DNA of 63,873 nucleotides, counting the filler, from Psammoneis japonica (taxonomy: Eukaryota), in NCBI GenBank assembly GCA_008632985.1. It is 4 parts of 3 records of this genome, joined end to end, with 100 filler letters (N's around TTAATTAATTAA, not from the genome) between each part and the next. Parts side by side here need not be neighbours in the genome. Positions count along the whole stretch, not along the records: positions 53,020 to 63,873 come from QPGO01000249.1; 3 more parts are not named here. The stretch is one strand, 5' to 3'. The notes beneath the pieces are model-generated. The model had not been told where the DNA came from, made no database searches, and was given only the letters and a program-made list of their open reading frames with translations. Both the position numbers and the translations under genes were made by a program. Shown piece after piece: positions 1-63,873 of this stretch; the first letter of the stretch is position 1; each line of letters begins with the position of its first letter.

Positions 1-2104
1 GCCTAGCTAGTAGAATAGCACGCTCTCAGATGTAGATGGAGGCAACTGGTCAGATGAGACGCGGGTGTAAACAGATCATCATCAGATTGATGTTTTTAAA
101 ATAGAAGATTAAGGAAGCCTATGTAGAGCGGAAGGTAACAGCAGAGGGAGGCACGGAGGTAGCTGTAGAGACGGTAGAGTAAAAGGTTCGATGGACGCAA
201 GACGAAGGGCGTTTTGTGGAAGGTATGGGTGAGGAGGGGGCAGGGAGAGAGGAGGTGAATCGGAGGATGTGCGTAGAAAGGTGAAGAACAACGTTGTAGC
301 CAAGAGTTTGGGTGGCCCACTGGGATGGGGTGGCTGTACGGTAGGTGCTTCCAAAGCGATCGGCGGACAGGCGACGCCATGCGGAGTCAGCAGAGGGAAG
401 GATTGCAGACGGAGACGATAAAGCGTAGAGGAAGGCGGAGTAGGAGGCATCGGAGTGACGAAGGTCAGAGGAAGAGGACCAGGGTGGCTTGGGCTGAGAG
501 CAGACGGGGGGGATGTAGAACCAAAGAGCAAGCGGTGGGCAAAGTAGCCGAGACCACCAAGGTGATCGACAGTGAAGGGGAGCAGGAAGATGCCATTGTT
601 GTCAAGCGAAGAAACAACAAGGGATCCATCGGCAGAGGAAGCAGAGGGGCCAAGAAACTTCAATCTCGCGCTCGAGTGGTGTGCCTCAGTTAAGATAGGA
701 GAAGAGGGAGCAGGCAGACCTGGAGGAGGGCGAGAGGAAGCTTGAGGGACGGTGACGTCCACTGCAATGTAGTGATGGCGGGAGGGAGCGGAAAGGGAGG
801 CGGGAGGGGGGACAGAAATGCCAACATCGGCGGGACGGAGGAAGCGGGCGGGTGGGGAGCAGGTTGGTGGGTTCAAGATGAACGTCATTGGGGGATCGAC
901 AGAACTCTGCAAGAGGACCCAAAGTTTGGGCTAGGATGAAAACAGTGTCACGGAGACCATTGGAAAGCTTGGACTTGTGAGCACGGCGGCAAGAAAAGGC
1001 ATGATCACCACAGGCGTCCAGAATGGCATGGCCACAGGGACAGGGAGTGTTGACAAGGGACGGAGGAAGGATGGGGAGACGAAGCTTACGAAGGGCGGCG
1101 ACAGCGCAGGCGTCCGAAGAAAGGCGGGAGCTTGGAAAGCGACGAGAGAAGGAATGAAGAGGAAGGCTTGTAAGCGGAGACAGCAATGAAGGGAGTGAAG
1201 ATTGCACGTCGTAAGATGAGTTAGCAAGGATGGAGGTCACTGCTTGTTGCTGATGTTCGTGGTAGAGATGACGGGCCAGGCCGGGGAGAGTGGCCGATTT
1301 AACCAGGGTAGCCAAGGAAGAAGAGGAAAGGGCAGAGGCGGAAGCCAGAACGGGAGCATGACGGCGGAAGAGCGTATAGAGTCGCAGGGAAGAGCGAGGG
1401 TTGGACCAGGAAGACAGGGAGAGCCGAAAGCAGCGCGGAAGGGAAACAGAAGCGCCAGATGGTAGGCTGACACCGTGCGAAGCAAAGCGGAACGAGCGGA
1501 GAAGCGACACCAAGAAGGAAGGAATGGCGGCAGCTGTTGGGTCCCGGAGACCAAACCCGCCCAAGGAGGCAGGAAGGAAGGCGATGGCAATAGAGTGGTC
1601 GGGAAAAGGAGCGGCGAAGGAAGTGACGTAGTGTAGAAAGCGGTGAGCAACGGTGAGGAGGAAATCTTGAAACGGAGAGGTCCAGAGAAAGGGGGCGGAA
1701 GGATCATCGGGGTCGAAGTTGCAGCAGAAGTCAGCTCCAAGGAGGTGAGCAGAGGATGGAACAAAACAGTGCTTGAAGAGTTGAGCCTGGGTTTGTTTGT
1801 CATGGAGACGGGTGAGAAGCATGTCAACTTTGTCGGAGAGAGCAGAGGAGGTGTCAGAAAGGAAGGAGGTGGCGAAGTCGTGGGAGCCGAGGGGCTGTCC
1901 AAGGAAGCGAACACCAGAGGTGAGTTCGGGGTTGCAAGAGGGGTCATTGGCGGGGTTTAAGAAGGAAAGTGCAGCACGGAGAGAATCGGCGCGGGAAGGG
2001 GGAAGAGCAGGGATGGGGCTAACACCGGTGATGGAGGCGAGGATCTTGGTTTTACGGAGGTTGAGGGAGATTCCGCAGGGGGGGCACCGAGGGCGGAGAA
2101 GCGT

Positions 2105-2956
2105 TCAAGGAACCATGGGAGCACAGAATGGGGAAGGAAAGCGTGGGGCATCGTCAATGTAGGAGCCAACTGAGACAGAGGAACGGCCAGGGATACGTTC
2201 TTGAAGTTCTTGGTTAATCGGACGAAGAACCAGAGAGAGGACCAGGCTGGCGAAGACAGGGCCGAGAGGGCATCCTTGGGCAAATCCCTCTTCTTGAAGA
2301 AAGGAGCCCCAGGAAGAATCGGGTCGGCGATGCCAACATGTGTTGGAACTTTGACATAGAAGGTCAAAAAAAGGAAGCAGAGGATGAAAGGCAGGGGTGG
2401 AAGTGAGAACGTGTCGACAGGCATCTCGAGATGCTTCGTTGAACATGTTGACGAGGTCAAGAAGAAGAAGAGCCTTGGTAGAGTCGGCAGAAGAAAGACA
2501 TCGTTCAATGTTGGCAAGAGCAGAGTGCATGAGATAATCGAGGCCACCTTTGACACCAATGCCAAATTGGCCATCTGGGAGGAGGCATTCGGTAAATGCA
2601 GAACCAAAGAGAGTCATGACGACGGAGCCGGCAATGCGACGAAGAGCAGTGCCGACGCCAATGGGGCGAAGCTTGTTGAGGTCGCTGGCATCTTTATGCA
2701 AAGCGACAAAGCAGTTCGAAGCAAATAAGGAATGGACGGAGGAAGGAATGGAGCCGTGGAGCAGAAGAAGGACAAGCTCACGAAAGGATGACAAGTGGGG
2801 GCGTTTGAGCAACACCTGTTGGGGTTTTGGTGGAACAGAGGGCGCAGGACTTGAAAAGGTCGGTAGAATCAGCAAAGACACCGGCAGCAGTCCCAGGCTT
2901 ACATTTGGAGAGAGCGGAAAGAAGAGCATCAGAGGAGAGCTCAACAGGCTCATCAT
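2105..2956 (-). pseudogene. Reverse transcriptase domain of the CRE-like element
   Basis: RT motifs through SYIDD are present; frameshifts on both sides; likely Tyr>Cys/His changes (FDLLCQ, CWHRR). Confidence 0.85.
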
Positions 2957-3886
2957 GAAGGGGAGGAGGCCGAGCGAGTTGAAGGAGGATTAGGCAGGTC
3001 GGAGGGGTGCAGGCGAGGAGGGTAGAGCTTGAGGATGGCAGGAAGGCGCTCAGGAGCAACGGCAGCAACAGGAAGCGCAGAGGTGAGCTTGGAGCAGGCC
3101 GAGTGAAAGTCATCTTCGTCGGCGCAAACTTGAGCGGAGTGGCAACAGGTGGAAGCAGAAAAGTCGGGGGAAGATGAGGAGAGGCGTGGCGCATGGGAGT
3201 GGGCTTCGTGGTGGAGTTGGCGAATGCAGCCACGGCGGAAGAGGGACAAGCGGGAGGCAATGGTGGGGCCAAACTTGGAGCGTGGCGGGACAGGAGCAAG
3301 AATGAGAGCTTCAAAGAGTAAGAGCAGCTTCCAGAAGGGAGCAGAGTCACGTTGCCACATGGGAATGAGGTGGGAGGGGTCAGAGAGAGGCTGGGAGGCG
3401 GCCAGCACCCAGCTTGTCACATGATGAAGAGCAGAGCAGAGTTCCTTGCGGGCGGAGGACGAGAGCTTGCGGCGGCAGGAAGCTTGGAAAGGCGGAGGCT
3501 CGAGTGCAAGAGCATGGAGCCATTGTGGCGAGGGGCCCCAGTCACCTGGATTATGGAAGGACGAGAGAACAATGTCAGCGCCAAGGGAAGAGCGAGGAGC
3601 GAAGTGCTTGTTCTGCAAGTGATTGCGAAGGTGGGTGGTAGACAGGTGGGGTGCATTGGCTATGATCACAATGCCTGCAGACATGCAAACCAGCGGCATC
3701 GAAGAAGGACGTAGGTGCATGAGAAAGCGAGAGGCGGGGATGCTCCTGGCGAAGATGGCTGCGCACAGAAGCAGGAAGGGATGGTGCATCAATGGAAGGA
3801 GGGGACCAGGAGCAGAAGGGGCAAGTCAGCGGGGCACGGGCTTCAGTGGGTTCCACGAGGCGATGAGATCGCGGAGGGAGTCGACA

Positions 3887-5413
3887 TCAGGGGCTGCAGC
3901 CCGGATGGCTTCTTCGTAGAAAGGTTGCCAGGCAGAAAGGCGGGCCGGGGCAGTGAGCACCTACGAAGGCATCAAGGACATCCAAGAGTTCCATCTCGCG
4001 CTGGGACTGCTGGGGAGAAACCGAGTCATCAGATTCGGTCTGCACAATTGCATCGGGAGCGGTGGGGGGCGGAGAGGTCTGCAAAACTGCGGCAGGAACA
4101 GCGGGGGGCGGAGAGAGAGTGTCGGGAGAAGAGTGGGGACGTTTGGAGGGAGGAGGCTCGGTGGTGAGGGAGCGGGCTTGGGGAGGATGGGAGGAAGGAG
4201 ATGCAGTGGCAGGGAGCGGATCTTGGGGCTTGGGGAGCTGCCAGTCTTGAGCAAGCAGCTCAAGGGCACGACACGAGAAAGAATCTCGAGAGGGAGCGGG
4301 CGGCTGAAGAGCAGCAGAGGCGCAGGATGGGGAAGTCACACTGTCGTCATGGGTAGATTCCGCCACAGAGGTGAGGAGATCCAAGGGAAAGCCGGGATGG
4401 TCATGCAGGTTGGCATCCACAAGAGCAATTGTGCACGGAGACGGGAAAAAGAGCAGCTTGTGCTTGATTGGGAGGGAGTCATGAGCAGAGAAGATGGGGA
4501 TGAGGGAGTGAAGATTGGTTGCAGCAAGGAGACGACTGATGCCAGGTTGGGTGAGAGGAAGAAGAAGACGGTCAGAGACAACCACTTTCATGTTGCTCTG
4601 ACGTGAAATGAGCTCGGAGAGGGCGTTGCAGGTGGAAGCAAAGTTGGCCGGGGCTGGGAAGGGAATGATGGCAGCAGAGGTCCCCAGGATGGAGAAGGAG
4701 GCAGGTGGCGCATTGGATGGATCAGTGACATGAAGCAGGGTGTTGGCATCGGAGGCAGCAGAAATGTAAAAAACCGGAAGAGAGCGGCGTCGCGCCTGGG
4801 CCGAGTTAGCGGGGTGTTGCGAAGGACGAATTCCAACGAGATTGAGAAAGGCAGGATGGTCTCGGAAGGATTGAAGGATGGGATTGGTCGCAGTGCTGGA
4901 GATCTTGCCAACAAGGAAGGAATAAAGGCGGGATAGAAGAAACTCAGAAGTGCGTCGAGAAGAACCGCAGAGGGTTGGAGAGGGGCCAGCAAGGACACCA
5001 TGAGCCTTTTCTTCGAAAGAGTTGCAGGCCGGGATCACAAAGGTGCAGTGCCGAGCCCAAGGATCATCCACAGCCGAAACCGGAGAGAAGTCAGGGTGGA
5101 GAAAATTGGAAGGGGAGCCAGCGGAGCGGAAGGGGGTGAAGTGCGACGTAGGGTGCAGATGCCATTTCTGAAGGAGAAAAGAGAGCGCTTGGCTGCGGAA
5201 GGATTCGAAGGAAAAGGTGGTGCCGTCGGGGGTCACCGGGTGAAGAGCAACGTGAAAGTGGGATGCCCACTGATTCTGGTGAGGACAGGAGCGCTTCTTG
5301 GTTTCGGCAAGCGTCACAGAGCCAAGAGTGAGGAGGAGCGGAGAGACGCGCCGGCTGTGATGCTCTAGCGTCTTAAGAATGATGTCACGAATGACATCAG
5401 ACGCTGAGAGCAA
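3887..5413 (-). CDS. Putative ORF1 / N-terminal region of the CRE-like element (Pro/Ser-rich, function unknown)
   Basis: 508-codon ORF upstream of the zinc-finger/RT region, same strand and same pyrimidine-rich bias; non-ATG start in the ORF track. Confidence 0.4.
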   Translation of the reverse strand: MLSASDVIRDIILKTLEHHSRRVSPLLLTLGSVTLAETKKRSCPHQNQWASHFHVALHPVTPDGTTFSFESFRSQALSFLLQKWHLHPTSHFTPFRSAGSPSNFLHPDFSPVSAVDDPWARHCTFVIPACNSFEEKAHGVLAGPSPTLCGSSRRTSEFLLSRLYSFLVGKISSTATNPILQSFRDHPAFLNLVGIRPSQHPANSAQARRRSLPVFYISAASDANTLLHVTDPSNAPPASFSILGTSAAIIPFPAPANFASTCNALSELISRQSNMKVVVSDRLLLPLTQPGISRLLAATNLHSLIPIFSAHDSLPIKHKLLFFPSPCTIALVDANLHDHPGFPLDLLTSVAESTHDDSVTSPSCASAALQPPAPSRDSFSCRALELLAQDWQLPKPQDPLPATASPSSHPPQARSLTTEPPPSKRPHSSPDTLSPPPAVPAAVLQTSPPPTAPDAIVQTESDDSVSPQQSQREMELLDVLDAFVGAHCPGPPFCLATFLRRSHPGCSP

Positions 5414-6057
5414 TGCAGAGGCACGTCAGGCAGGTCAGTAGGATGAAGGACCTGAGCTAAAAGCTTAACATCAGCAGGAGGAGCGGAGGCGAGAGTAGAC
5501 ATGATCAAGCGGGAAGAGAAAGTTTGCAGAGAGTCGTTGTTGTGTGCGGATCGCCAAAAACAGCGACAAGGTCACAGAACGTGTAGAAAGATAGGAGGAG
5601 GGAAGGTGAGGGCATGACGTGGGCAATCGTACACGAATGATCGTAGAGGATGCATAGAAACATAGGGAGGAAGGCACAAGCAGAAGCGCGAAGGGAGTCA
5701 TGGAAGAGAAAGGGGCAGTAGAGAGGGCCGAAGGGTAGGGGAAGCTGTAGAGGAGTACGGAAGCAATCGTGTTCGAAGGGGCGTAGAAAGGCATGTGGAA
5801 CGATAGGAGAGGAGTCATAACTAAAGGCGCGAAGGGAGTCATGGGAGGAAGGGGGGCAATTGAAGGGATTGCTGGAGGAGGAAATGGGGAAGAGGTCAGG
5901 GAGCAGAGAGGGGCCATAGGGAAAAGAAACGAACAAGGCAGAGAGGGAGAGAGGGCATAAGGAAGAGCAGAAAGGGAAATGGCAGGGGGCAGTTGTTGGG
6001 ATGAAGAAAGGGAGTGAGGAAAAGTGAAAGGGCAATGGAATGAGCAGTTGGAAGGGC

Positions 6058-6370
6058 NNNNNNNNNNNNNNNNNNNNNNNNNNNNNNNNNNNNNNNNNNN
6101 NNNNNNNNNNNNNNNNNNNNNNNNNNNNNNNNNNNNNNNNNNNNNNNNNNNNNNNNNNNNNNNNNNNNNNNNNNNNNNNNNNNNNNNNNNNNNNNNNNNN
6201 NNNNNNNNNNNNNNNNNNNNNNNNNNNNNNNNNNNNNNNNNNNNNNNNNNNNNNNNNNNNNNNNNNNNNNNNNNNNNNNNNNNNNNNNNNNNNNNNNNNN
6301 NNNNNNNNNNNNNNNNNNNNNNNNNNNNNNNNNNNNNNNNNNNNNNNNNNNNNNNNNNNNNNNNNNNNNN
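6058..6370. other. Assembly gap (N run)
   Basis: Continuous run of N. Confidence 0.99.
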
Positions 6371-10265: not shown

Positions 10266-10365
10266 NNNNNNNNNNNNNNNNNNNNNNNNNNNNNNNNNNN
10301 NNNNNNNNNTTAATTAATTAANNNNNNNNNNNNNNNNNNNNNNNNNNNNNNNNNNNNNNNNNNNN
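10266..10365. other. Artificial contig linker N-TTAATTAATTAA-N
   Basis: Six-frame stop spacer at 10310-10321 flanked by N runs; identical linkers at 37404 and 52964. Confidence 0.95.
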
Positions 10366-37359: not shown

Positions 37360-37459
37360 NNNNNNNNNNNNNNNNNNNNNNNNNNNNNNNNNNNNNNNNN
37401 NNNTTAATTAATTAANNNNNNNNNNNNNNNNNNNNNNNNNNNNNNNNNNNNNNNNNNNN
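37360..37459. other. Artificial contig linker
   Basis: TTAATTAATTAA at 37404-37415 between N runs. Confidence 0.95.
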
Positions 37460-52919: not shown

Positions 52920-53019
52920 NNNNNNNNNNNNNNNNNNNNNNNNNNNNNNNNNNNNNNNNNNNNTTAATTAATTAANNNNNNNNNNNNNNNNNNNNNNNNN
53001 NNNNNNNNNNNNNNNNNNN
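52920..53019. other. Artificial contig linker
   Basis: TTAATTAATTAA at 52964-52975 between N runs. Confidence 0.95.
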
Positions 53020-53903
53020 TTCACAAAGAAGGAAACGATAATCGGAAGAACCGGTTCCCAAGACGCGTACCATACCGCCTTTCGAACGTGTTCATGTTCC
53101 ACAGGTCGGCTCTGGATTGAGCCGCTATGCAAGTACAAGTTGTGAGGCATGACCACAGAACCCAAAATCCCCGTAATGGCGAAAATGTCGCTTGCAGTGA
53201 CTTGCTCGAAGCCGTACACCCACCCAGCCATTGCTTCGTTCCATTCAACACCAACTACATTCATTTCAACCCAGAGTGCAATACTCATAATCCCCACAAA
53301 GCAGGCAATCAGGAATTCCAAAATGTTGATTCCATAGTTCATCGTTGCGAGGAAAATCATGGTGGTAATGAGTGACAGAACGACCCCCACCACGTACGGC
53401 CAGCCGAAAAAGATGTTGCACGCTATTCCAATCCCAATAACTTCGGGTAAGTCTGTGACGATTGTACTGAACTCCGCAATAAACCAGTTGAGATACCTCA
53501 TTCTATCCGTTGAATTCGATGCTTGCACTTGAGCTAGATTCACCCCTCCGTAATACGCCAGTCTCACGCAAAGAACTTGTACGTAAATGGACAGAATCGA
53601 GGTCCACCAAACACAGAACAGCAAGTAATATCTCGTAGTTGCTCCGGCTTGAACATCGGCCTGATAATTTCCTGGATCAACATAGGCGACAGAGACAAAC
53701 CAACCAGGACCAACAAAGTACCAGAAATCTCTCCAACGGTTTCCTGATGGTGACCACGGTGCAATTCGATGTGGTGATGATGATTCGTTGGAAGAAAATT
53801 CTTCTTCCTCGGCATCCTCCGTTGTTGTTGTTGTTGCATGATCGCCTTCCATGATACTTTCTGACATTGGAGGATCTGGTGCATGCATCGTTGAGAGTTC
53901 CAT
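53020..53903 (-). CDS. NRAMP: NRAMP family divalent metal transporter, 3' truncated by contig end
   Basis: GPGWFVSVAYVDPGN and GSVVMPHNLYLHS signatures; multiple TM helices. Confidence 0.95.
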
Positions 53904-54021
53904 GGGTCGAGCGAGTAAGACTTTTTAATGTTTGCGGTCTGGTGACCGCCATTTTGTTTGTGTGGTCGGTCGGACATCGCGGCGCATTGCGGCATGTTTC
54001 ATCACGCACGGCGAAAAGCGG

Positions 54022-54268
54022 ACAGACGAAATGCTTCCTGATTGACCGACCATGAACAGACCGGAATTTAGATTGAAGATTGGATCTCAGATCGATCGAT
54101 CGATCCTGAAACAAAGCTCTTTCTGCTCATCTCAACATCACAATCGACTCTTAAGTCTGATTGTGTGTTCAACGATTGCAACCAGGAAGAAGCAACATGC
54201 TCCCAACCTGTCCCAACTGCAGCGCTGTTCAACGTGCACGTCGGCTCCACCATCAGCGCAAGAACTCG
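54022..54268. repeat. About 250-bp dispersed direct repeat, second copy at 63622-63873
   Basis: aatgcttcctgattgac.gaccatgaaca...agattgaagattggatctca...gactcttaagtctgattg...ttgcaaccaggaagaagcaa present in both. Confidence 0.85.
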
Positions 54269-54779
54269 TGGCCACACGCGCGGCAGCGCGCGCAACACTG
54301 TGCCGGGTGCGGTAGAAGAATCATCATCATCTGAAATCGGGACTGAACGAAAATTACACGGTGAAGGACGCAGGTTATTCGCAAGGTTCCATCTCATGTT
54401 CAATGTGCGGGGGACGTGTTCCAGGTCTAGGTGGGACCTCGCACTGCTGAACTGTGACATCGATAGTTTTTTGAATCACGTCGTATGTCGCGCACGTAGA
54501 TTTCTACGTGATTTTTTCGATATTTTGTATCTATAGGCACCAGAGGGGGGGTGATATTTTGAGACAGTGACGTGTGCTTAGTTGAAGGGGGCGGTGCACT
54601 TCAAGTGCACTGGCATAGTTTCCGGTGCACAGCGGTGCACTGATAAGTAATTTTTGACTTTCTTTCGTCCCTAAGTAGCTTTGTCCAAAAGGTCATTCGA
54701 AAACTCGAGGGGCGCGCCAAAAGAAAATCATCAAAAACTCGCATTTCTCGTTCGCGAGAGAGAAAACACACACTCGACG

Positions 54780-56888
54780 ATGACATCTTACGTTATTTTG
54801 AAGGGCGGCGGATTCAAAATAACGCAGCAAACCCGCTCTCTTGGTGAGTCGAGCTTGAATAAGACACTGAAGAAGTACAAGCTTGACACAACGTCACCAA
54901 AACTTGCAATTACAGGAAAGAACAAAAAGACCGGCGAAGTAGGCACTGACGCTGTTGCGACTAGTTCTATTGCACGGTATGAACCCATATGGAGGCTTTT
55001 TCGTGACTTCTGCTACCTGATTGATGATTCTGAAAGTGCCATGCTGCCGGCACGTGACTTGTGTCCATCAGATCCTTTTCCTTCGAATTTTTATACAGCA
55101 ATCCAGTTTGCTCAGTTCAGGACAAAACAAAAAGGCGAACCACTACTTCACAACCGCACGAACGCTCCTGTAAAGGACCGGCATGGAAACCCTATCACCT
55201 GCATTGGTGATTGGAAAGGTCATTCTTCCATTGGGCTCTTCCGCACTGCCATGAGCAAGCTTCACAAGCACTACGAAACGACCAATGGCGAACACCGAGA
55301 AATGTGCACTGCTTGTCATGAGATTGGCGAGGAGGAAGCCCGAAAGGGCACTGGATGCCGCAAACACCCTGGTGATCCCCATTTCTGGCGTCGTGGAAAT
55401 ACCACCAAACATGAAGATTTCAAGGCTGCAATTGACCAATGGCAAGACTACGCATCAAACTGCTACGAAGCTAGAAGTGCTTTTGCATTCTTGCCGGGCG
55501 AGGTGCGGGCTATTCGAGACCACTGTTTGTCACATAATGACAAGTATCATCTAATGCTTTGGACTATCATTATTGTTGGTACAAAGTCATTTCTACGCTG
55601 TGAAGAAGTTTTGGAGATGACGGTTGAAAAGTTTGTCACCGAGTACTTCCAAGTGTCGGAAAATGCCGTCAAGGGTCTCTGCACCAAAATCCGTGGCAAG
55701 CGTGACGAGAAGGATCTTCATTTCATGATTTGGGACGATGAAGAATGTCCTGAATTCTCAGGAACTATTGCTATTCTCCTTTGGATGCATTATTCCGGCA
55801 TCAAGTCGGGCAAGTTGTTTCCCACTAGAGACGAGTTGGAGCTCAACAAGGAACATCACGACAAAAATTTTCCATACGACTCGCTCCTGGATTTTTTCAA
55901 GTTTGCTTGCGAAACCATTCTGGGAAGAGACATTGATAAGATGTCAACTGAAATCATTGGAACACACATTCTTCGAAGGACTGGCTTTGCGTTTGCTGAA
56001 TGGGGCTCTACGCGTGACGGAGGGCGGCTGGGTGAGATGGCCGAAGCGAACACATTGCTGAGCGCTCGTCACAAGAACATGTCAAGCACCGCGACTTGCC
56101 TTTCTGACAGTGGTACACTGAAGGCTCTAGTTGATAGGGAAAAGGACAAGGATGCTCACCGTGTTGGTAAATGGGAGCCCATCCATATGAAGCATCTTTC
56201 TTCATTTGCATCCGTCATGGTAGACTCTGCCAGGTGCCGCAAGCCTCCACCAGAACTTGCTGATTGGCACGTGACGGAACTGCTTGGTGTGCAGCAGAGC
56301 AACTTATTGACTGTCAAGCAGCTGTTCACAAAAGCTACATCATACACCCCGGACTTGTCTGATGAAGAAGAAATGAAGCAGTTCTTGATTCGTGAGCTTG
56401 GATCTAGCAAGGCAGAGGTGGTGATGCGAATGCACGACAAGTCGGCTGCAGAAAGAGTGCGTGCTGCACAGTCTACAACTTTTGAAGTACTCACCAATGC
56501 CAACAGTGCAAGGGAGAAGCGAGCTGCTACTGACCCAGCTCAAGATGAAAGGAACACCAAAAAAACCAAGTCCACAGGTGATGCCGTCGTACAGTTTGAT
56601 CGTGACTGCCAATCTGAATTTAAATCCACCAAGGACGCTGCTACCAAGGTTCAGGTATTTGTGGATGCATGCCAGGACGTGAAAGATCAGGTGCGCGCCG
56701 GCAAGTCCTTGGAAGATCCTATCAAAAGCTTTGCATATCGAGCCGCTAGGGTCGTACAGTGCCTTGACGACTGCTACGACGGCAAGGTTGATTGTTTTTT
56801 GCAAGAGAATTCTGGGCCCCTGTCAAAGTTCAGGACGTGCAACAAGGGTGTCAATCACAAGCCTACATTCGATATGGCAAAACTGTAA
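54780..56888 (+). mobile_element. Crypton-like tyrosine recombinase ORF (702 aa), catalytic Tyr apparently replaced by Cys
   Basis: FLRCEE (R), GKRD (K), THILRRTG (HxxR), SARH (H), then STATCLSDS where Y is expected; Cys/His cluster CTAC...GCRKH; no RT nearby. Confidence 0.8.
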
Positions 56889-57291
56889 GAGGACAGGACT
56901 TACCAATACATAGAAATACATAGCGTTGTTCATCATTGTCTACAGTGGTATCGCGCCGTGCTTCACTCGTTCGCGTTTCGACGAGCGACTCTCAATTCTG
57001 GTGAGCGGCAGTGCCTCCGTTGCTTTTCTACGACTACAAGTACGACCAGGTACGATCAATACCACGACTACCCATGACCACGCGTGACGTGTACTTCGGT
57101 CTATAGTATGCTCTGTAGGCGCCAGTACTGATTCTACGTGAGTGCACAGTGCACAGCACAGATGTGCTGTATCCATTAATTAAATTCTCGTACTGCGGAG
57201 CTCGCACGTAGAATTCTATGGGCCCAATGTCACACGGAGTCCCACCTGGGGCTGGAACGCGTCGGGGCCACCATTTCAACACAATCAACAA

Positions 57292-58640
57292 ATGCCGGCA
57301 GACTGTCAACGTACGATGCATGCCGCAACACCTTCAGCCCCTTTCTGGGCTAAGACAATGAGTCTGCTTTTGGCCACCGTGTCATGTCAGAAAGTCATGG
57401 GACATGAAGTTGAGGTCAGTGTTGATGGCTCCGTCGTCCAGAAAACGATCCATCAGCAAGAGCATCGGGTTCGCTTCATCAACAAAAGCAGGTGCCCTGT
57501 CAACATGTGCTTTGAGGATGACAAGGAAGGCAAAAAGATCTCCACAGCCGAGGTTGGAGAGGACCGGACCATCAGGACTCTGCACCATGCCATCTTCTAC
57601 GTCACAAGACTTGGGGCTCGCGATGGTCTCTTCGATCCCGAAACGGACCTGCAGCACAGGTTTCGTGCATCCTTGCCGGATCAAGTCTTTGAGATCCCAG
57701 CAGTGGCAGAACCCTCCAAGAATCCCTGTCACAATCACTTTGCTGTCCTCTGCCCGAAGAAGGCCAAGCAGGGCGATTGCAGTCGAGAACCAGGTTGCGC
57801 AGCAATTCACTGCTGTCAGTCATGCGATGACGAGCTTGATGCAAGTCGTCTCATTGACCCAAAGGTCCGGTGCACCCGCGAATTCCTCAACATGACAGAG
57901 CCTGCTTGGCATCTGGGCGATCTCAACAAGCTCTTTACTTTGTGGGCAACCGACCCTCGCTGTGCCCAGTGCGAACCAAAGGCACACAGTTCTGTTCTCC
58001 CAATGCTGGTGCACACGGAGGAAAGGATGGCCCGTGGGTGTTGACATTTGAGAACTTTCTAACCAGCGAAGAAGTGGATGCTCTCATTGAGGGCGGGTGC
58101 TTGGAAGGGTTTCGTCGGAGCCGCACTTGTGAAGGTGAGAATGCGAACAAAAAGAGGACCACAGCGGAAGGCCGCACGAGCTCCAACGCTTGGTGCCCAC
58201 AGAAATGCTCGGCTTTGGAAGGAGTCAAGTCCGTTTGGGACAAGGTCCAAGCAGCCACTGGGGTGGCCACGTCGCATTGTGAGAGAATTCAGATCCTAAA
58301 ACGCGAAGAGAACCAGTTCCATGGCACTCACCACGATGCCAAGAAAAGAGATGTTTCGCTCAGTGGACCGTGAATCCTCACCTTTTTGCTGTGCTTGAAT
58401 GATGTTGAGGAAGGAGGTGAAACCAACTTTGATGCATTGGACATGGCGGTGAAACCAAAGAAGGGAAGGGTCCTGATTTGACCCTCCATTGCGGATGATG
58501 ATCCTGAGTGCTGTGAGAAGCGCGTGCATCACCAGGCGAAGAAGGTGGTTGGGGAACAAAGCATGCCGCAAATTTCTGGATTCGTCAGCATGATCTTGAA
58601 ATTCCAAACAGGTGGAAGTGCAACCCGACCACTGGCTGGC
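57292..58640 (+). pseudogene. P4H: ShK-domain prolyl 4-hydroxylase (2OG-Fe(II) oxygenase) pseudogene
   Basis: ShK-like C..C..GDC..P...HCCQSC; GPWVLTFENFL, RTSSNAWC, THHD, LNDVEEGGETNF, VKPKKGR, HQA; frameshift and stops. Confidence 0.85.
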
Positions 58641-58749
58641 TAGCCCCATTTCCCGCACGCAGTTCGGATGGCCCAGGAAGCACTCCAACAAGAGAAGAGA
58701 GCATGGAAAGACCCGATTGCAATGATGCAAAGTTCTTGCCAGCATTCAA

Positions 58750-59560
58750 AAGGACATCTCTAACTCCCATTGGGAAGCCCAACTGGCTGATTCTGAGAAG
58801 ATCAAAGGTCCAGAATGGACCACAGTGCACAGAAATTCAAAGAGCATGAGATGAATTTAAATTAACTTGACAGAACGTCGCTTTTGCCAGTCATGACGCA
58901 TGAATGTCAAAAGTGTCAAATGGATCCGACAATGCAGTTCGATGACCCACGCACTGTCCAAGTGGGGTCGCAAGTGTGAACAGCATCCCAGCTTCGTTTG
59001 TGGCTTTGCTGCGTGGCCGGTTGCTGGACGACTGGCAATTGATCATTCACAGCTTGCGTGTTGGATGCAAGACTTCCTTTCTCCATGAACTCAAATGTCA
59101 CAAACATTTGCTTCTTGTCAATCATGGCACCAATGACCTGAATGACCCTGGGATTGTGCAGCTTCACCAGCTGTGCCATGTCCTCTTTCATCAAACTCGA
59201 CATGCAGCCCCTGCTTCTTGTTTTGTCAGAAGAGGACCCACAGGAAAGGTTGCTGTTGAGTTGAGAGTGCCCCTGGGATGATGCTTTCACAGCAACAGGC
59301 AACAGGAGCACTGTGAAGGCACCCTTTGGTCATGATGCCAAAGGATCCTTCTCCCAAAATCTTGCCAGTCAATTGCAAATCTTCTGGTTTGATCACCCTC
59401 TGCTGCTTGGCCTTTTGGCATTCTTTTCTCACAAGAAAGAGTGCAAAGAAACTGGCAAAACAATTGCGGCAAAGGCCCAGCAAGCGATGACAATGTCGAC
59501 AATGGCACCCTCGCTCAAGCTGTCTGAGTTCTGAGTTGACTCTGGCTTGCACATGTTGAG
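58750..59560 (-). pseudogene. Receptor-like TKL protein kinase relic
   Basis: TM-like segment followed by ILGEGSFG, L..P.VIQVIGA and EFMEKGSL; frameshifted and TA depleted. Confidence 0.72.
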
Positions 59561-60127
59561 CGACTTTTGGCAGATGGACAAGAGAGGGAGGGTTGTGTCA
59601 TCGTGATTGTCACAGTCACACGTGGTTTGTTGCCAAGCAGCATCAATCAAGTCTGCCACCCCAAGTCTGTCCTCACAAGTCTTTTCAAGTCAAGCCACAA
59701 AACTCTCTTTGAGATGCTCAATGATGTGGTCATGCATTGCCGCAAAGGAGATTGCAGCCTTCAGGAAGCACACATCAAGAATGGTGTTTTGGGAACCAAG
59801 CGCTTTGCAACAGCATCCTTGCATTGCTCAGCTCCATTGATCTGTGCAGAAATGGGGAGCAAGTGCTCATTTCGAAGAGACAGAGATTTTCTGTGTTGTG
59901 TGAAAATTGTGAGATTATTTTGTGCAGAGCACGCGCATGTGCGACAGCAAGACATGGGGAGTTTGAGTCCTTCCGCGGAATCAGTCATGCTCGGTGCTGC
60001 ACGCATCATGCACAGACACTTCATGCAAGGTGAGTCACTTGCGCAACAGCCAGTCACGCTGGTCTCAGTCATGTGGACACTCCTGCAGCCTGTCACAGGT
60101 CTTGCACTGGGAGTCGCGTTGTCCAAT

Positions 60128-60565
60128 TGCAATATACAGCTACTAATAAGAGTTAATGTATCACGGCGACGTGTTACAGCCTTTAAAAGTCACAAAGGGC
60201 GTGACAAAATAACCTTTTGTCTGCATGCACACTGCATTATGAATTCATAGCGGAGTGGTTCATCTCGCATCCATTAGGCTGGAGGCCAGGGGTTCGAAAC
60301 CCCGAGTGGGAGTTGTCTGCAGCAACGTTGATCACTGTCGAACGCGTAAAACTCTGTGCAGTTCTGCATGTTCCTTCGTACGCACCCACACTGTTCCGCC
60401 AAAACCGTGCAGTGTCAGTACACGTGAGCGTAGGTCGCGTGATACATGGGGAGGAGTGCAACATACAGCTACTAATAAGAGTTAATGTATCACGGCGACG
60501 TGTTACAGCCTTTAAAAGTCACAAAGGGCGTGACAAAATAACCTTTTGTCTGCATGCACACTGCA
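60128..60565 (+). mobile_element. 438-bp TRIM-like miniature LTR element
   Basis: 109-bp direct repeats 60128-60236 and 60457-60565 (TG...CA, one visible mismatch); PPT GGGGAGGAG abutting the 3' LTR; 4-bp TSD CAAT; empty site in the paralog near 61848. Confidence 0.88.
60241..60312 (+). promoter_or_regulatory. tRNA-like segment with Pol III A and B boxes inside the TRIM
   Basis: A box TAGCGGAGTGG (60248-60258); B box GGTTCGAAACC (60291-60301) within a GGGG-TTCGAAA-CCCC T-arm; no convincing acceptor stem. Confidence 0.65.
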
Positions 60566-62161
60566 CAATGCATGCTTCTGCAGAATCAGTGTCACTGCGG
60601 ACAGCCTGCAGACGCAGGCAGGAAAGTGGCATCATCGGCGGCCATGGCAGGGATGCCTGCTGCACTCGCCCCCCATGACAAGGTTGCACGAGTGAAAAAA
60701 AGGGGCCCACTGCTGCCAAGGGACATGTTTTGTTGTGCCCGACAGCACACACTGCCTTCCCACTCATGAAGGGAGTCATTGTCATCATCTTGACATTGTT
60801 TCAGTGGACATTTTGCCACGTTTGGCCTCTGGAACATGTGCAAGCGAACACTGCATTCAGGAGCATCAAGACATTCATCAAATTGTCCAAGCTGCCAAGG
60901 TCACACAGGTCGCTGTCATGTTGGCCGTTGTCAGATTCTCAAGACCCTTTGCTGCCATGTCATCAGTGTCAGCATCAGAGTCTTCAGAGAGGGGCGCATT
61001 TTCGAAGACATCAAGTTCTCCATCTGCCTTCGCGGCATCACATGCCATGTGTTTCAATGCATTTTTTTACAGCCCATTCAACGATGACATTGAGTTCTTC
61101 ATTGTCGCGTGCGTCAGTTGTTTTCTGAGCTGACATCATCTTGGGTCACTTGACTTGAAGTTTCGGTGTCCAGCAATCATCAGTGCCGTGATTGCCTGAA
61201 CCGTGAAGCATGCACACAGTGTCACGCATCATGTCTGACTTGCTTCTTTGCCGCCAATGTTTGCTCACTTGGCACGCAATCGAGCTGTCTGCTGCACTTC
61301 TTCATCTTGGCATCTTCAGGGTCATTTTGAGGTTCATCTTTAGGAGCGCTCATTGTCAAGTGGCAAAGGTTCTGAAAAGCACTTGCACACGATTGACATT
61401 TTTGCATTTTTGCTTTCTGCTGCTCTCTCAATTGAACAGTCACAGAGAACAGGTGATTGACATTCTGTCGCACTCCACTCTTTTCTGCAGAGCGGCTGAC
61501 AGCAATGGCTGGTTGTTGAATGAAGGCTGTTCTTGCACTTGCTGGGAGCAATGTTGCTGCAACCCATGCAGAAATGGGGAGCAAGTGCTCATTTCAAAGA
61601 GACAGAGATTTTCTCTGTGTTGTGCAGAAATTGTGAGACCATTTTGTGCAGAGCATGTGTGTGTGCAGCAGGAAGACATGTGGAGTTTGAGTCCTTCTGC
61701 GGAATCAGTCACACTCAGCACTGCGTTCATCCCACGCAGACCCTTCACACAAGGTGAGTCACTTGCACGATGGCCAGTTGCATGGGTCTCAGTCATGTGA
61801 ACACTCCCACAGCCCATTGCAGGTCTTGCGCCAGGAGTCACGTCATCTGATGCACACTTCTGCAGGGTCAGCATTGCGGTGGACAGCCCACAGATGCAGG
61901 AAAGCGGCATTGTTGGCAGCCATGGCAGGGATGCCCACTGCACCATCTCTTGGATGTCCTTGTTCCACCCATTTGGCCAATGTCAAAATGCCACTTTTGG
62001 CACTGAAGCTCACACCAAAAAGCTCATTCAGTCCCATGAAAACAAGCCTGGCGCATGCTATCATGAACCACATGTTGCAAACAATGTTCAGTTCAACACA
62101 CAAGTTAAATTTTTGTCACTCAGCAGAGCTTGCAAAAAGCTTTGCCAGCTTTCAAAAGCCA

Positions 62162-62282
62162 GCACCAGCTTTTGTGGCACCAAAAAATGGGTGCCGGGGG
62201 CTTTTGTGGCACAAAAAAAATGAGCGCTGGCTTTTGCGGCACCAAAAAATGGGTGCCAGCTTTTGTGGCACCAAAAATGGGC
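62162..62282. repeat. About 30-bp minisatellite x4
   Basis: gcttttgtggcaccaaaaaatgggtgcc units with an internal GGCACC/GGTGCC inverted repeat. Confidence 0.9.
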
Positions 62283-63873
62283 TTGGATGACAACTTTGCA
62301 GCTCTGTCTCTTGATGAGATGGTGGCCTGAGGACGAGCCCTGCTTGTGCCACGTGATGCTTGCACCAGTGCAGTGCAACACAAACAAAAGCAAACATTGT
62401 GGGAAGGCCCTGCTGTGGATTTGATGAAGATCAAACTGGCCGGCTTTTCATCATTTTTGGAGAAGTTCATGACTTCAAGCTCAAATGAATCTGCAACAAA
62501 CAGCCTGTTGACCAAGCAAAACATGCCAAATGAAATGTCGCAGACACGCATTTTAAATGACATCCTTGTCTTGTTCATGCACCATCAGATGCTGTCCAAG
62601 AAACCTTTTGGCAACAAGCTGCTCTCTGCAAGCATGAATCAAACACAAGGAGGAGGACGAGGCTTCTTCAGCAACAGCAGCAAGATGCTCATCAAGTGTG
62701 TGGCCATTGGTTTGGATGCTGGCCTTGTTGGATGCAATGCATGTGCCGTGCAGCGTGACAAACAGGAGTGGCAAAAGAGTGCCATGATGCTCAAAGGGGT
62801 GATGTGGATGCCACTTCACACCACTGTTGAACAGCACATGGAAATGATTCAGCAGGCAGCTCATCTCCAAAAATGAGAACAACAAGGATTTGACCTAGAG
62901 CGAAATTGGATTGGTCTGTTGCTGCACAACATTTTCAAAAATGCGCACTGCCAGGACATGAACATTGAAGAGTGGTGTCACAAGCAAGGAACCGAACTTG
63001 CGATTCCCAACTTGATGGTGTCAATGAAATGGCAGATTGATGATGATGCAATCTGTGCTGCCAGGATGACCACAACAGCGGGGACACATTTGCTTCAGGT
63101 TGAGGTGTTGAAAGTTTGTCCCACTGACAACCGCCGCAATGACAGCGGTGAAAGCACAGAGGAGCAAACAGGCTGCAACTGCCATGTCATCAGGTTGGAT
63201 GATGACAAGAACGCAATTGCTGCCAGATGTGGCAGCCTTGCTGGCCAGGTGGAAAGCTCTGGCCCTGGTTTCTCCTGTGACTTTGAAAACTGCTCGGGCT
63301 GTTCGTCATGGAAGAATCAGTCATTGTCGGTGCACTGTGCACTCTGCACCCCCACGAACCCAAACAAGTGCCGCAGTTGATTTTTGTGAAGTTCACTTTG
63401 TGCCAGTCTCTGGCCTGCATTCCATCTTGCTTCTGACTTTTAAAGACTCGAGGGAAAGTTGGCATTCAATCATTTGTGCTTGCGACCTTGTCCTTTTTTC
63501 ATCATGCTGCAACAAAGCATCGTGGACTCATTTTCCTTCTTCTTCCTAAGATGCAACATGCTGTGCTGTTGATTGTGTTCTTTTGCAACAGCAGCATTTA
63601 CACTCAAACTTTAAGCCTGATGCAGATGAAATGCTTCCTGATTGACTGACCATGAACAAACCAGAATCCAGGAAAGATTGAAGATTGGATCTCATCAGAT
63701 CGATCGACCCTGAAACAAAGCTCGTCGCATCACCACAATGGACTCTTAAGTCTGATTGCGTGTTCAATAATTGCAACCAGGAAGAAGCAAGAACATGCTC
63801 CCAACTTTTCCCACTGTGTGATGTGCTGCATGTTGGCCCCTCGCCACCTGCGTTCTATCTGCACAACGAACTC

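Follow-up and report, generated by a model that had tools for sequence, protein, structure and literature searches.

Repeat-induced point mutation (RIP), known from Neurospora and other ascomycetes, changes C to T at CpA, makes TA from CA/TG and creates stop codons. A TpA-specific hypermutation has been described in Bigelowiella natans, where, according to the preprint, integrated giant-virus and virophage DNA is mutated de novo in mutation-accumulation lines, almost only by A-to-G and T-to-C changes, all of them at TpA and giving TpG/CpA on either strand, with the process confined to foreign or repeat DNA and TpA-poor coding sequences enriched in transposon domains (Mettrop et al.; 10.64898/2026.01.13.699255). 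Our literature search found a TpA-erasing process in print only for B. natans, in this 2026 preprint, and no description of such a process in diatoms was among the matches listed in a full-text literature search. Of the tyrosine-recombinase transposons, the CryptonS elements of oomycetes and Phaeodactylum tricornutum are described as having 5-6-bp terminal direct repeats and lacking inverted ends, with Crypton insertions leaving short direct repeats of such a size (PMC3212892, PMC13465315). Here we analysed a stretch of 63,873 nt from Psammoneis japonica (GenBank assembly GCA_008632985.1; hereafter the window, filler between its joined parts included), the part at 53,020-63,873 of which (QPGO01000249.1) carries a gene for a 702-aa tyrosine recombinase in a small transposon. 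This transposon copy has very probably been partly rewritten by a TpA-specific A:T-to-G:C process, with the change of Tyr440, the nucleophile position, to Cys.

The changes at this locus resemble those described there in being A:T-to-G:C at TpA, in affecting both strands and in falling on repeat DNA whilst genes are spared. The two systems differ in host, B. natans being a chlorarachniophyte (Rhizaria) and the genome here being of stramenopile type, probably that of a diatom; in the nature of the evidence, de novo events there and differences among copies here; and in target, which is a giant-virus insert there and a small recombinase transposon here. With RIP the process shares its restriction to repeats, its dinucleotide specificity, its action on both strands, the inactivation of transposon genes and copies that differ by CA/TG versus TA. 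It is unlike RIP in that TA is destroyed and no stops arise, the TA alleles being ancestral and the islands TA-poor.

The locus contains a single long open reading frame (ORF), the frame 54681-56888 on the plus strand, within a mobile unit whose limits are described further below:

54413..57263, plus strand: mobile unit, outer limits in the window copy, 2,851 bp, bounded by 25-nt inverted ends that match imperfectly
54780..56888, plus strand: 702-aa tyrosine-recombinase ORF, open throughout, read from the first ATG

A word-indexed search with the 702-aa protein returned 25 database relatives of 463-780 aa (24-55% identity to the window protein in the alignment, 28-56% in BLASTP best local alignments), and an exhaustive profile search returned 1,786 cluster representatives at E ≤ 1e-3, including 501 at E ≤ 1e-30. 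A Pfam scan of the 702-aa protein and all 26 alignment members gave no recombinase family and no DUF3504, and a profile search of solved-structure sequences with the 702-aa protein gave nothing relevant, so that the identity of the recombinase rests on its fold. An AlphaFold2 model built on the 26-member alignment (the window protein and its 25 relatives; mean pLDDT, the predicted local distance difference test score, 84) was matched by Foldseek most closely to Cre (probability 1.00, TM 0.68 on the target), followed by XerH, XerA, Tn1549 integrase, lambda integrase and Flp. VIA-align superposed model residues 36-442 on Cre 19-326 with a Z of 18.5 over 297 residues and a root-mean-square deviation of 4.0, and gave Z values of 14.9 for lambda Int, 13.3 for XerH, 12.9 for Tn1549 Int and 10.3 for Flp; the structural match covers both the core-binding and the catalytic domain. 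On this model the protein belongs to the tyrosine recombinase superfamily, with a two-domain Cre/lambda-Int-like fold. It resembles Cre of phage P1 (1pvp, 1ma7) in the two-domain clamp and in the R-K-H-R-H/W-Y pattern with the nucleophile nine residues after H/W, and is unlike it in sequence (~10% identity), in length (702 versus 343 aa), in having an extra Cys/His insert and C-terminal region, and in being a eukaryotic transposon protein. Cys/His clusters are kept across the family both in the insert (C176, C179, C193, H196) and in the C-terminal region (C661, C665, C687, H693), and the two look like putative zinc-binding modules added to the recombinase core.

The catalytic positions were read from a wider alignment of 169 relatives, with per-column counts that exclude gaps:

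55596..55598, plus strand: R273, first catalytic Arg (FLR motif), codon CGC, intact; R in 154/157 relatives
55698..55700, plus strand: K307, hairpin Lys (GKRD), intact; K in 157/158 relatives
55965..55976, plus strand: H396-x-x-R399 (HxxR box), intact; H in 146/155 and R in 148/155 relatives
56070..56072, plus strand: H431, second His (SARH), intact; H in 151/152 relatives
56097..56099, plus strand: codon 440, TGC (Cys), the nucleophile position, nine residues after H431

The observation made in the initial annotation is confirmed. The ORF is open with R273, K307, H396, R399 and H431 all present, and the nucleophile position after SARH is TGC at 56097-56099, within the stretch LLSARHKNMSSTATCLSD, in a column that is Tyr in 147 of the 148 aligned relatives. 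Tyr occupies this column in 25/25 relatives of the first alignment; among the 169, the counts are Y 147, H 1 and gap 21, with Cys in the window protein alone. K307 lies between the modelled strands 297-304 and 313-318, and in the tyrosine recombinase superfamily the hairpin Lys sits between two such strands. C440 falls on the modelled helix 434-452, and its spacing of nine from H431 is presumably that of W315/Y324 in Cre and H270/Y279 in XerD. A residue-level match of C440 to Cre Tyr324 was not obtained: one VIA row, ending at model 442 = Cre 326, agrees with it, and the other rows have different ends. The family is thus a member of the superfamily and the window copy a broken member of it, in which the nucleophilic Tyr is replaced.

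The loss of tyrosines extends beyond codon 440. With 15, the 702-aa protein has the fewest tyrosines of the 23 full-length alignment members (the others have 16-41), and it departs from the family at 3/9 conserved Tyr columns, against 0-2 in closer relatives. Three further tyrosine codons bear on this:

56235..56237, plus strand: codon 486, TGC (SARCR), Cys in the window; family Y 36, F 36, C 0
56268..56270, plus strand: codon 497, CAC (ADWHV), His in the window; family Y 68, F 66, H 2
55875..55877, plus strand: codon 366, TAC in the window, which retains this near-invariant Tyr; Y in 143/151 relatives

Seven Cys/His codons of the window protein (aa 135, 228, 248, 440, 486, 497 and 610) are Tyr in other contigs from the same sample, as set out below, and family evidence alone makes H172, where 134 relatives have Y, an eighth candidate Tyr loss.

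Sister copies were sought in three public sequencing runs (X1, X2 and X3) from one sample of the same organism and from one study, of which X1 and X2 cover the stretch wholly or partly; X1 contains 73% of the sampled words of the stretch, and X2 and X3 leave portions uncovered. Contigs of these runs were aligned to 54000-57300 at ≥80% likeness and alleles were weighed by summed contig depth. The window itself holds no second copy of the element by tblastn or blastn. At 56098, A in place of the window's G accounts for 277.9 of the 393.6 summed X1 depth (71%, 4 contigs) and restores TAC, so most variants in the sample read TAC at codon 440; the window's G is also present in X1 contigs, with the remaining 115.7 of 393.6. 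The initial annotation had proposed exactly this check of the siblings for TAC, and had also named SARCR and ADWHV as candidate Tyr losses. The former is borne out, since A replaces G at 56236 in 297.9/412.3 of the X1 depth (72%) and in an X2 contig, making C486 a Tyr. The latter holds in part: T replaces C at 56268 in 371.7/412.3 of the X1 depth (90%) and in the X2 contig, and position 56269 is G in 90% of X1 depth, so that codon 497 is TGC and not TAC in most X1 contigs, whereas the X2 contig changes only 56268 within this codon and thereby reads TAC, turning H497 into Tyr. The exchange also runs the other way. At 55876, G replaces the window's A in 507.6/737.1 of the depth of other contigs (69%), giving TGC at codon 366, and sister copies have therefore been altered at different TA sites. 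An X2 contig of 818 nt that is 99.5% identical to the window shows 4 differences, 3 of which are TA where the window has TG/CA.

The context of the changes was classified for the 40 best-supported of 423 listed differences, 34 of which lie inside the ORF. Within the ORF, 17 of these are TG/CA in the window against TA elsewhere, 5 are the reverse, 5 are of CpG type and 7 are other changes:

55110..56702, no strand assigned: span of the 17 TG/CA-versus-TA sites among the best-supported differences

Eight of the 17 sites are TG and nine are CA, which means that both strands were altered, and the coding effects at such sites include H135, C228, H248, S270, T425, M434, C440, C486, P490, H497 and C610. 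Where the window has G/C and the other contigs A/T, 17 of 20 rows stand in a TG/CA context, against 35% expected from the ORF's own composition (binomial p = 5.9e-6); where the window has A/T and the others G/C, 5 of 8 stand in a TA context against 11% expected (p = 8e-4). In the host-side (Nramp) flank at 54132-54164, a small control, none of the 4 listed differences is TA-type. The second check proposed in the initial annotation, whether copy-specific changes are TAY>TGY or RTA>RCA, likewise came out in favour of its interpretation.

The polarity of these changes was read with the protein family as outgroup. Sixteen TA-type differences are non-synonymous; in 11 cases it is the TA allele that codes for the more frequent of the two residues among relatives. 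The ratios of TA-allele to TG/CA-allele residue among relatives were 100:0 for L270, 105:1 for I425, 147:0 for Y440, 93:1 for L490 and 143:0 for Y366, so that, in each of the 5 columns dominated by one residue, that residue is the product of the TA allele; for Y497 the ratio of Tyr to His was 68:2, and a further non-synonymous site, aa 228, stands at 2:0. Since the TA allele gives the family residue at conserved columns, the change ran from TA to TG/CA. Read against this outgroup, TA is the ancestral state and TG/CA the derived one, in the window copy and, at other sites, in its sisters.

The ORF has a TA observed/expected ratio (O/E) of 0.44 with 63 TA left and a CG O/E of 0.77, and the whole unit has values of 0.55 and 0.89. 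The unit's non-coding ends have TA O/E of 0.62 and 1.15 (the latter on the right, 56889-57263) and CG O/E of 1.26 and 1.20. Since the ORF has lost at least 17 TA sites and retains 63, the loss amounts to about one site in five. The surroundings are far more strongly affected: nine islands (TA O/E < 0.15 in 500-nt windows) make up 29.4 of 63.9 kb, ~46% of the window, with TA O/E of 0.02-0.07, TG/CA of about 2 and CG O/E of 0.05-0.4, the loss of CpG being a further point in which they are unlike B. natans. These islands alternate with normal genes, including those for Nramp, an ABC ATPase, the C-terminal part of a DEAD-box helicase and a 3'-5' exonuclease protein, and the genic stretches of the window have TA O/E of 0.45-0.78. 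TA loss is confined to repeat DNA, and the neighbouring genes are spared. One of the islands adjoins the unit:

57264..58044, no strand assigned: right flank, heavily TA-erased island, TA O/E 0.10, 4 TA in 781 nt

With its TA O/E of 0.10, this heavily erased island begins exactly at the element's right end. Next to this long-mutated DNA the unit gives the impression of a more recent arrival, probably a young insertion at an early stage of the process. The description of the recombinase as 'hit early' is accordingly better put as 'lightly hit', about a fifth of its TA sites having gone where the islands have almost none left.

These observations fit a model in which the ORF would be part of a multi-copy DNA transposon of Crypton type that encodes only a Cre-like tyrosine recombinase, and in which TA would become TG where one strand is changed and CA where the other is, a process that would also have stripped nearly every TA from the repeat islands of the window. 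In the window copy the process would have turned the nucleophile Tyr440 into Cys and altered other conserved residues, namely L270S (three residues before R273), I425T, L490P and Y497H. As TAY codons contain TA, tyrosines become Cys or His, and as a change of TA to TG/CA never makes TAA, TAG or a new in-frame TGA, the frame stays open while the protein decays; an open frame of 702 codons therefore says nothing about selection in this genome. The earlier idea of a TAY-targeted mutator that makes no stops thus survives as regards the loss of Tyr without stops and is amended as regards the target, which is TpA and not tyrosine as such. With Tyr440 lost, the window protein should fail to form the covalent 3'-phosphotyrosyl link to DNA and is probably catalytically dead, and the DNA of the window copy could still be movable by intact sisters. 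One guess at the enzyme behind the mutation would be an adenine-deaminating activity.

Several observations weigh against this interpretation. The element's non-coding ends are not TA-depleted, and none of the differences listed there is TA-type. The context classes rest on the 40 best-supported differences, most of them in the ORF, and the 80% likeness threshold means that the 'other' contigs mix close and distant copies. As to direction, the family favours the window residue at 3 of the 16 non-synonymous sites (aa 111, 135 and 574), and aa 602 is a tie. All runs come from the one sample and study and are possibly the assembly's own data, and at six places (54690, 55091, 55092, 56053, 56248 and 57075) X1 lacks the window letter, from which it follows that the window's copy is not fully represented in X1. 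Some of these and further points can be read in favour of ordinary decay, in which an inactive transposon suffered a random A-to-G transition at a Tyr codon with no special mutator involved. Transitions do dominate the X1 differences (312 of the 423 listed), the TA O/E of the ORF is not diagnostic, as it lies within the 0.40-0.73 of relatives' ORFs elsewhere and beside 0.45 in the Nramp-side flank, and an analysis of the family without the siblings gives TA erasure for 7 of 45 departures. Random decay would not, however, place 17 of 20 window-G/C differences in a TG/CA context when 35% are expected, nor yield TA-type changes at 3 of the 4 positions that set a 99.5%-identical contig apart, nor remove almost every TA over nearly half of the window, and we consider it unlikely. 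A base-calling or assembly artefact, by which the G at 56098 and the other TG/CA letters would be consensus errors, takes some support from the six places mentioned and from the incomplete coverage of the stretch by X1 (73% of sampled words); moreover, X1 may be the sample behind the window's assembly, in which case the G at 56098 is not independent of assembly error. The G allele at 56098 nevertheless has 115.7 of 393.6 summed X1 depth, and errors would not be limited to TA sites on both strands or be polarised against the family consensus, which makes an artefact highly improbable.

Two other explanations take the sequence differences as real and read them otherwise. In a RIP-like process running in reverse to the one proposed here, the window's TG/CA would be original and the sisters would have gained TA by C-to-T changes at CpA. 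The CA/TG-versus-TA class of difference is the same as that produced by RIP, and the copies alone give no direction, but the outgroup points the opposite way (Y440 147:0, L270 100:0, I425 105:1, L490 93:1, Y366 143:0) and the islands are TA-poor and TG/CA-rich rather than TA-rich, leaving this explanation scarcely credible. A natural Cys variant, or a domesticated host gene derived from a recombinase in which the nucleophile is not needed, would agree with 702 open codons and the retention of all other catalytic residues, and animal host genes derived from Cryptons that lack the catalytic Tyr do exist (PMC3212892). Against it stand the absence of Cys from all 148 relatives at this column, the presence of several variants in one sample, most of them TAC, and the borders of a mobile element; the open frame is no argument in this case, since no stop codon can arise by TA erasure. 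Domestication of the DUF3504 type is further contradicted by the loss of the Tyr only, and not of several catalytic residues, and by the lack of a DUF3504 match. We regard this explanation as very improbable, in line with the initial annotation, which had ranked a natural Cys variant lower than mutation of the tyrosine. Partial rewriting of the copy by a TpA-specific process remains the account that we prefer by far.

The outer limits of the mobile unit are set by 25-nt inverted ends (arms 54413-54437 and 57239-57263, 21/25 complementary), and the agreement of X1 contigs with the window breaks off immediately outside 54413 and 57263, at the outer ends of the inverted repeat. The two ends are common to a far more abundant MITE-like family (MITE, miniature inverted-repeat transposable element), and 6-bp direct repeats lie at the inner borders:

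54413..54528, no strand assigned: left end common to the abundant MITE-like family, 116 nt, summed X1 depth 9e4-2e5
57170..57263, no strand assigned: right end common to the same abundant family, 94 nt, summed X1 depth 1e5-2.3e5
54526..54531, plus strand: 6-bp direct repeat TGTATC, left copy, placed exactly at the point where likeness to the abundant family ends
57168..57173, plus strand: TGTATC, right copy of the 6-bp direct repeat, at the right inner border

The interior of the unit has a summed X1 depth of about 300-600, several hundred times below that of the ends. Behind 54528, 13 contigs depart with one common continuation (agreement 0.96), and 16 contigs enter at 57171 from one common sequence (agreement 0.92); abundant ends with common continuations indicate that the ends belong to a MITE-like family with a different interior of its own. 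The two TGTATC, at 54526 and 57168, are the only ones in 54301-57400, and the pair, observed in this single copy, may be the crossover-site duplication of a Crypton-type unit at ~54529-57170. GGGG is found on both outer sides of the unit, possibly as a 4-bp target duplication. Within 54413-57263 the only long frame with homology support is the 702-aa ORF, the other frames being of 100-154 aa and overlapping it, and relatives of the recombinase sit on contigs of 2.5-3.6 kb; the tyrosine recombinase is the only enzyme encoded by the element, which has no reverse transcriptase.

The element is like CryptonS in its one tyrosine-recombinase gene, in a C-terminal region that is conserved and lacks GCR1_C, in its stramenopile host and in its low copy number, and the TGTATC at both inner borders of the one copy examined may correspond to the direct repeats of CryptonS. 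Unlike Cryptons, which are described as lacking inverted ends, the window copy lies between 25-nt inverted ends common to the abundant family, and these arms may be part of a MITE-like carrier instead of the recombinase unit. The likeness is one of description, and the Pfam scan gave no match. An Atlas feature search ranked hypothetical clusters of Oomycota and Bacillariophyta first, followed by NDC10_II, DUF3435, GCR1_C and DUF3504, which are Crypton-related recombinase families, and this ranking serves as a lead only to a Crypton relationship. The recombinase family is widespread in stramenopile-type genomes; no relative was found in viral contigs, and metagenome contigs held 8 loci of distant relatives (32-44% identity), too distant for codon-level polarity.

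We lean, a little better than evenly, towards a Crypton-type unit at ~54529-57170 that lies inside a MITE-like carrier. The less favoured alternative, still quite possible, is that the recombinase element owns the inverted ends and that the MITEs derive from it. A more speculative and rather doubtful reading would have the recombinase unit and the abundant family, with its shared 25-nt inverted ends, make up a kind of eukaryotic tyrosine-recombinase transposon not described so far, with MITEs belonging to it. A search for inverted ends in the metagenome contigs of 4 relatives found none that was convincing, and these contigs may be cut; a contig joining 54528 directly to 57171 was not among the contigs listed, which is no proof of its absence. 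In an X1 contig of depth 34.7, position 57264 is joined to 54466, a step of 2,799 nt backwards that could stem from MITE copies lying side by side, from a tandem arrangement or from a junction like that of a circle. When the continuations of the abundant family were compared between the X1 consensus and an X3 contig, 5 of 6 mismatches were TA in X3 and TG/CA in X1, and TA erasure seems to be polymorphic in the MITE-like family as well.

Other features of the window were noted. The ORFs 57292-58044 and 57870-58373, to the right of the unit, have no Pfam match and lie in DNA with a TA O/E of 0.10, and 57264-58373 may be a gene copy already rewritten by the TA-erasing process. At the far end of the window the plus strand of 1-6000 is purine-rich (GC skew 0.35-0.43, AT skew 0.32-0.37, GC 56%) and has long minus-strand ORFs of 267-508 aa, two of which were tested and gave no Pfam match; TA O/E is 0.12-0.68 in this region, and no tandem repeat was found in it. 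Three identical blocks of 44 N, 12 bases and 44 N lie at 10266-10365, 37360-37459 and 52920-53019, at or near borders of TA-depleted islands, and there is a longer run of N at 6058-6370.

Two X2 contigs skip 56008-56099 and 56820-56903, which on the minus strand would be introns with GCAAGT...AG and GTAAGT...AG ends, respectively. X2 is labelled 'DNA?', and as it has almost no depth on the hyper-abundant ends it is probably RNA-derived; no RNA run was listed for the stretch in the sequencing-run search. The contigs suggest that the 3' half of the recombinase gene is covered by an antisense transcript that is spliced. Its first intron has a donor overlapping the Tyr codon, which as TAC would make the donor GTAAGT and as the window's TGC makes it GCAAGT. 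A clustering of TA losses under the antisense contigs was considered and set aside, as 12 of the 17 sites in 55589-56888 and 5 in 54780-55588 (~9 versus 6 per kb) do not differ significantly. Because copies in one sample differ at TA sites and the only probably RNA-derived contigs are antisense-spliced, one speculative and rather doubtful reading is that the TA-erasing process is active now and is RNA-directed, with antisense or double-stranded RNA from the transposon recruiting an adenine-modifying activity to DNA.

A recently described kind of mutation process is thus found in a second algal lineage, acting on a Crypton-like recombinase transposon. Old saturated islands give neither direction nor tempo; this locus adds a partly mutated copy, its unmutated sisters from a single sample and an outgroup from which the direction can be told, and so catches the process part-way. 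Its coding consequence is plain, an essential catalytic tyrosine being removed while the frame is still open, and it calls for caution in annotation, as open and well-aligned copies of transposons or genes in such genomes can be dead. The TAC and TGC copies provide a ready-made natural test of recombinase activity. If confirmed in a diatom, the finding would extend the TpA mutator of chlorarachniophytes to a second major algal lineage, and this would suggest a widespread eukaryotic genome defence that works in the direction opposite to RIP.

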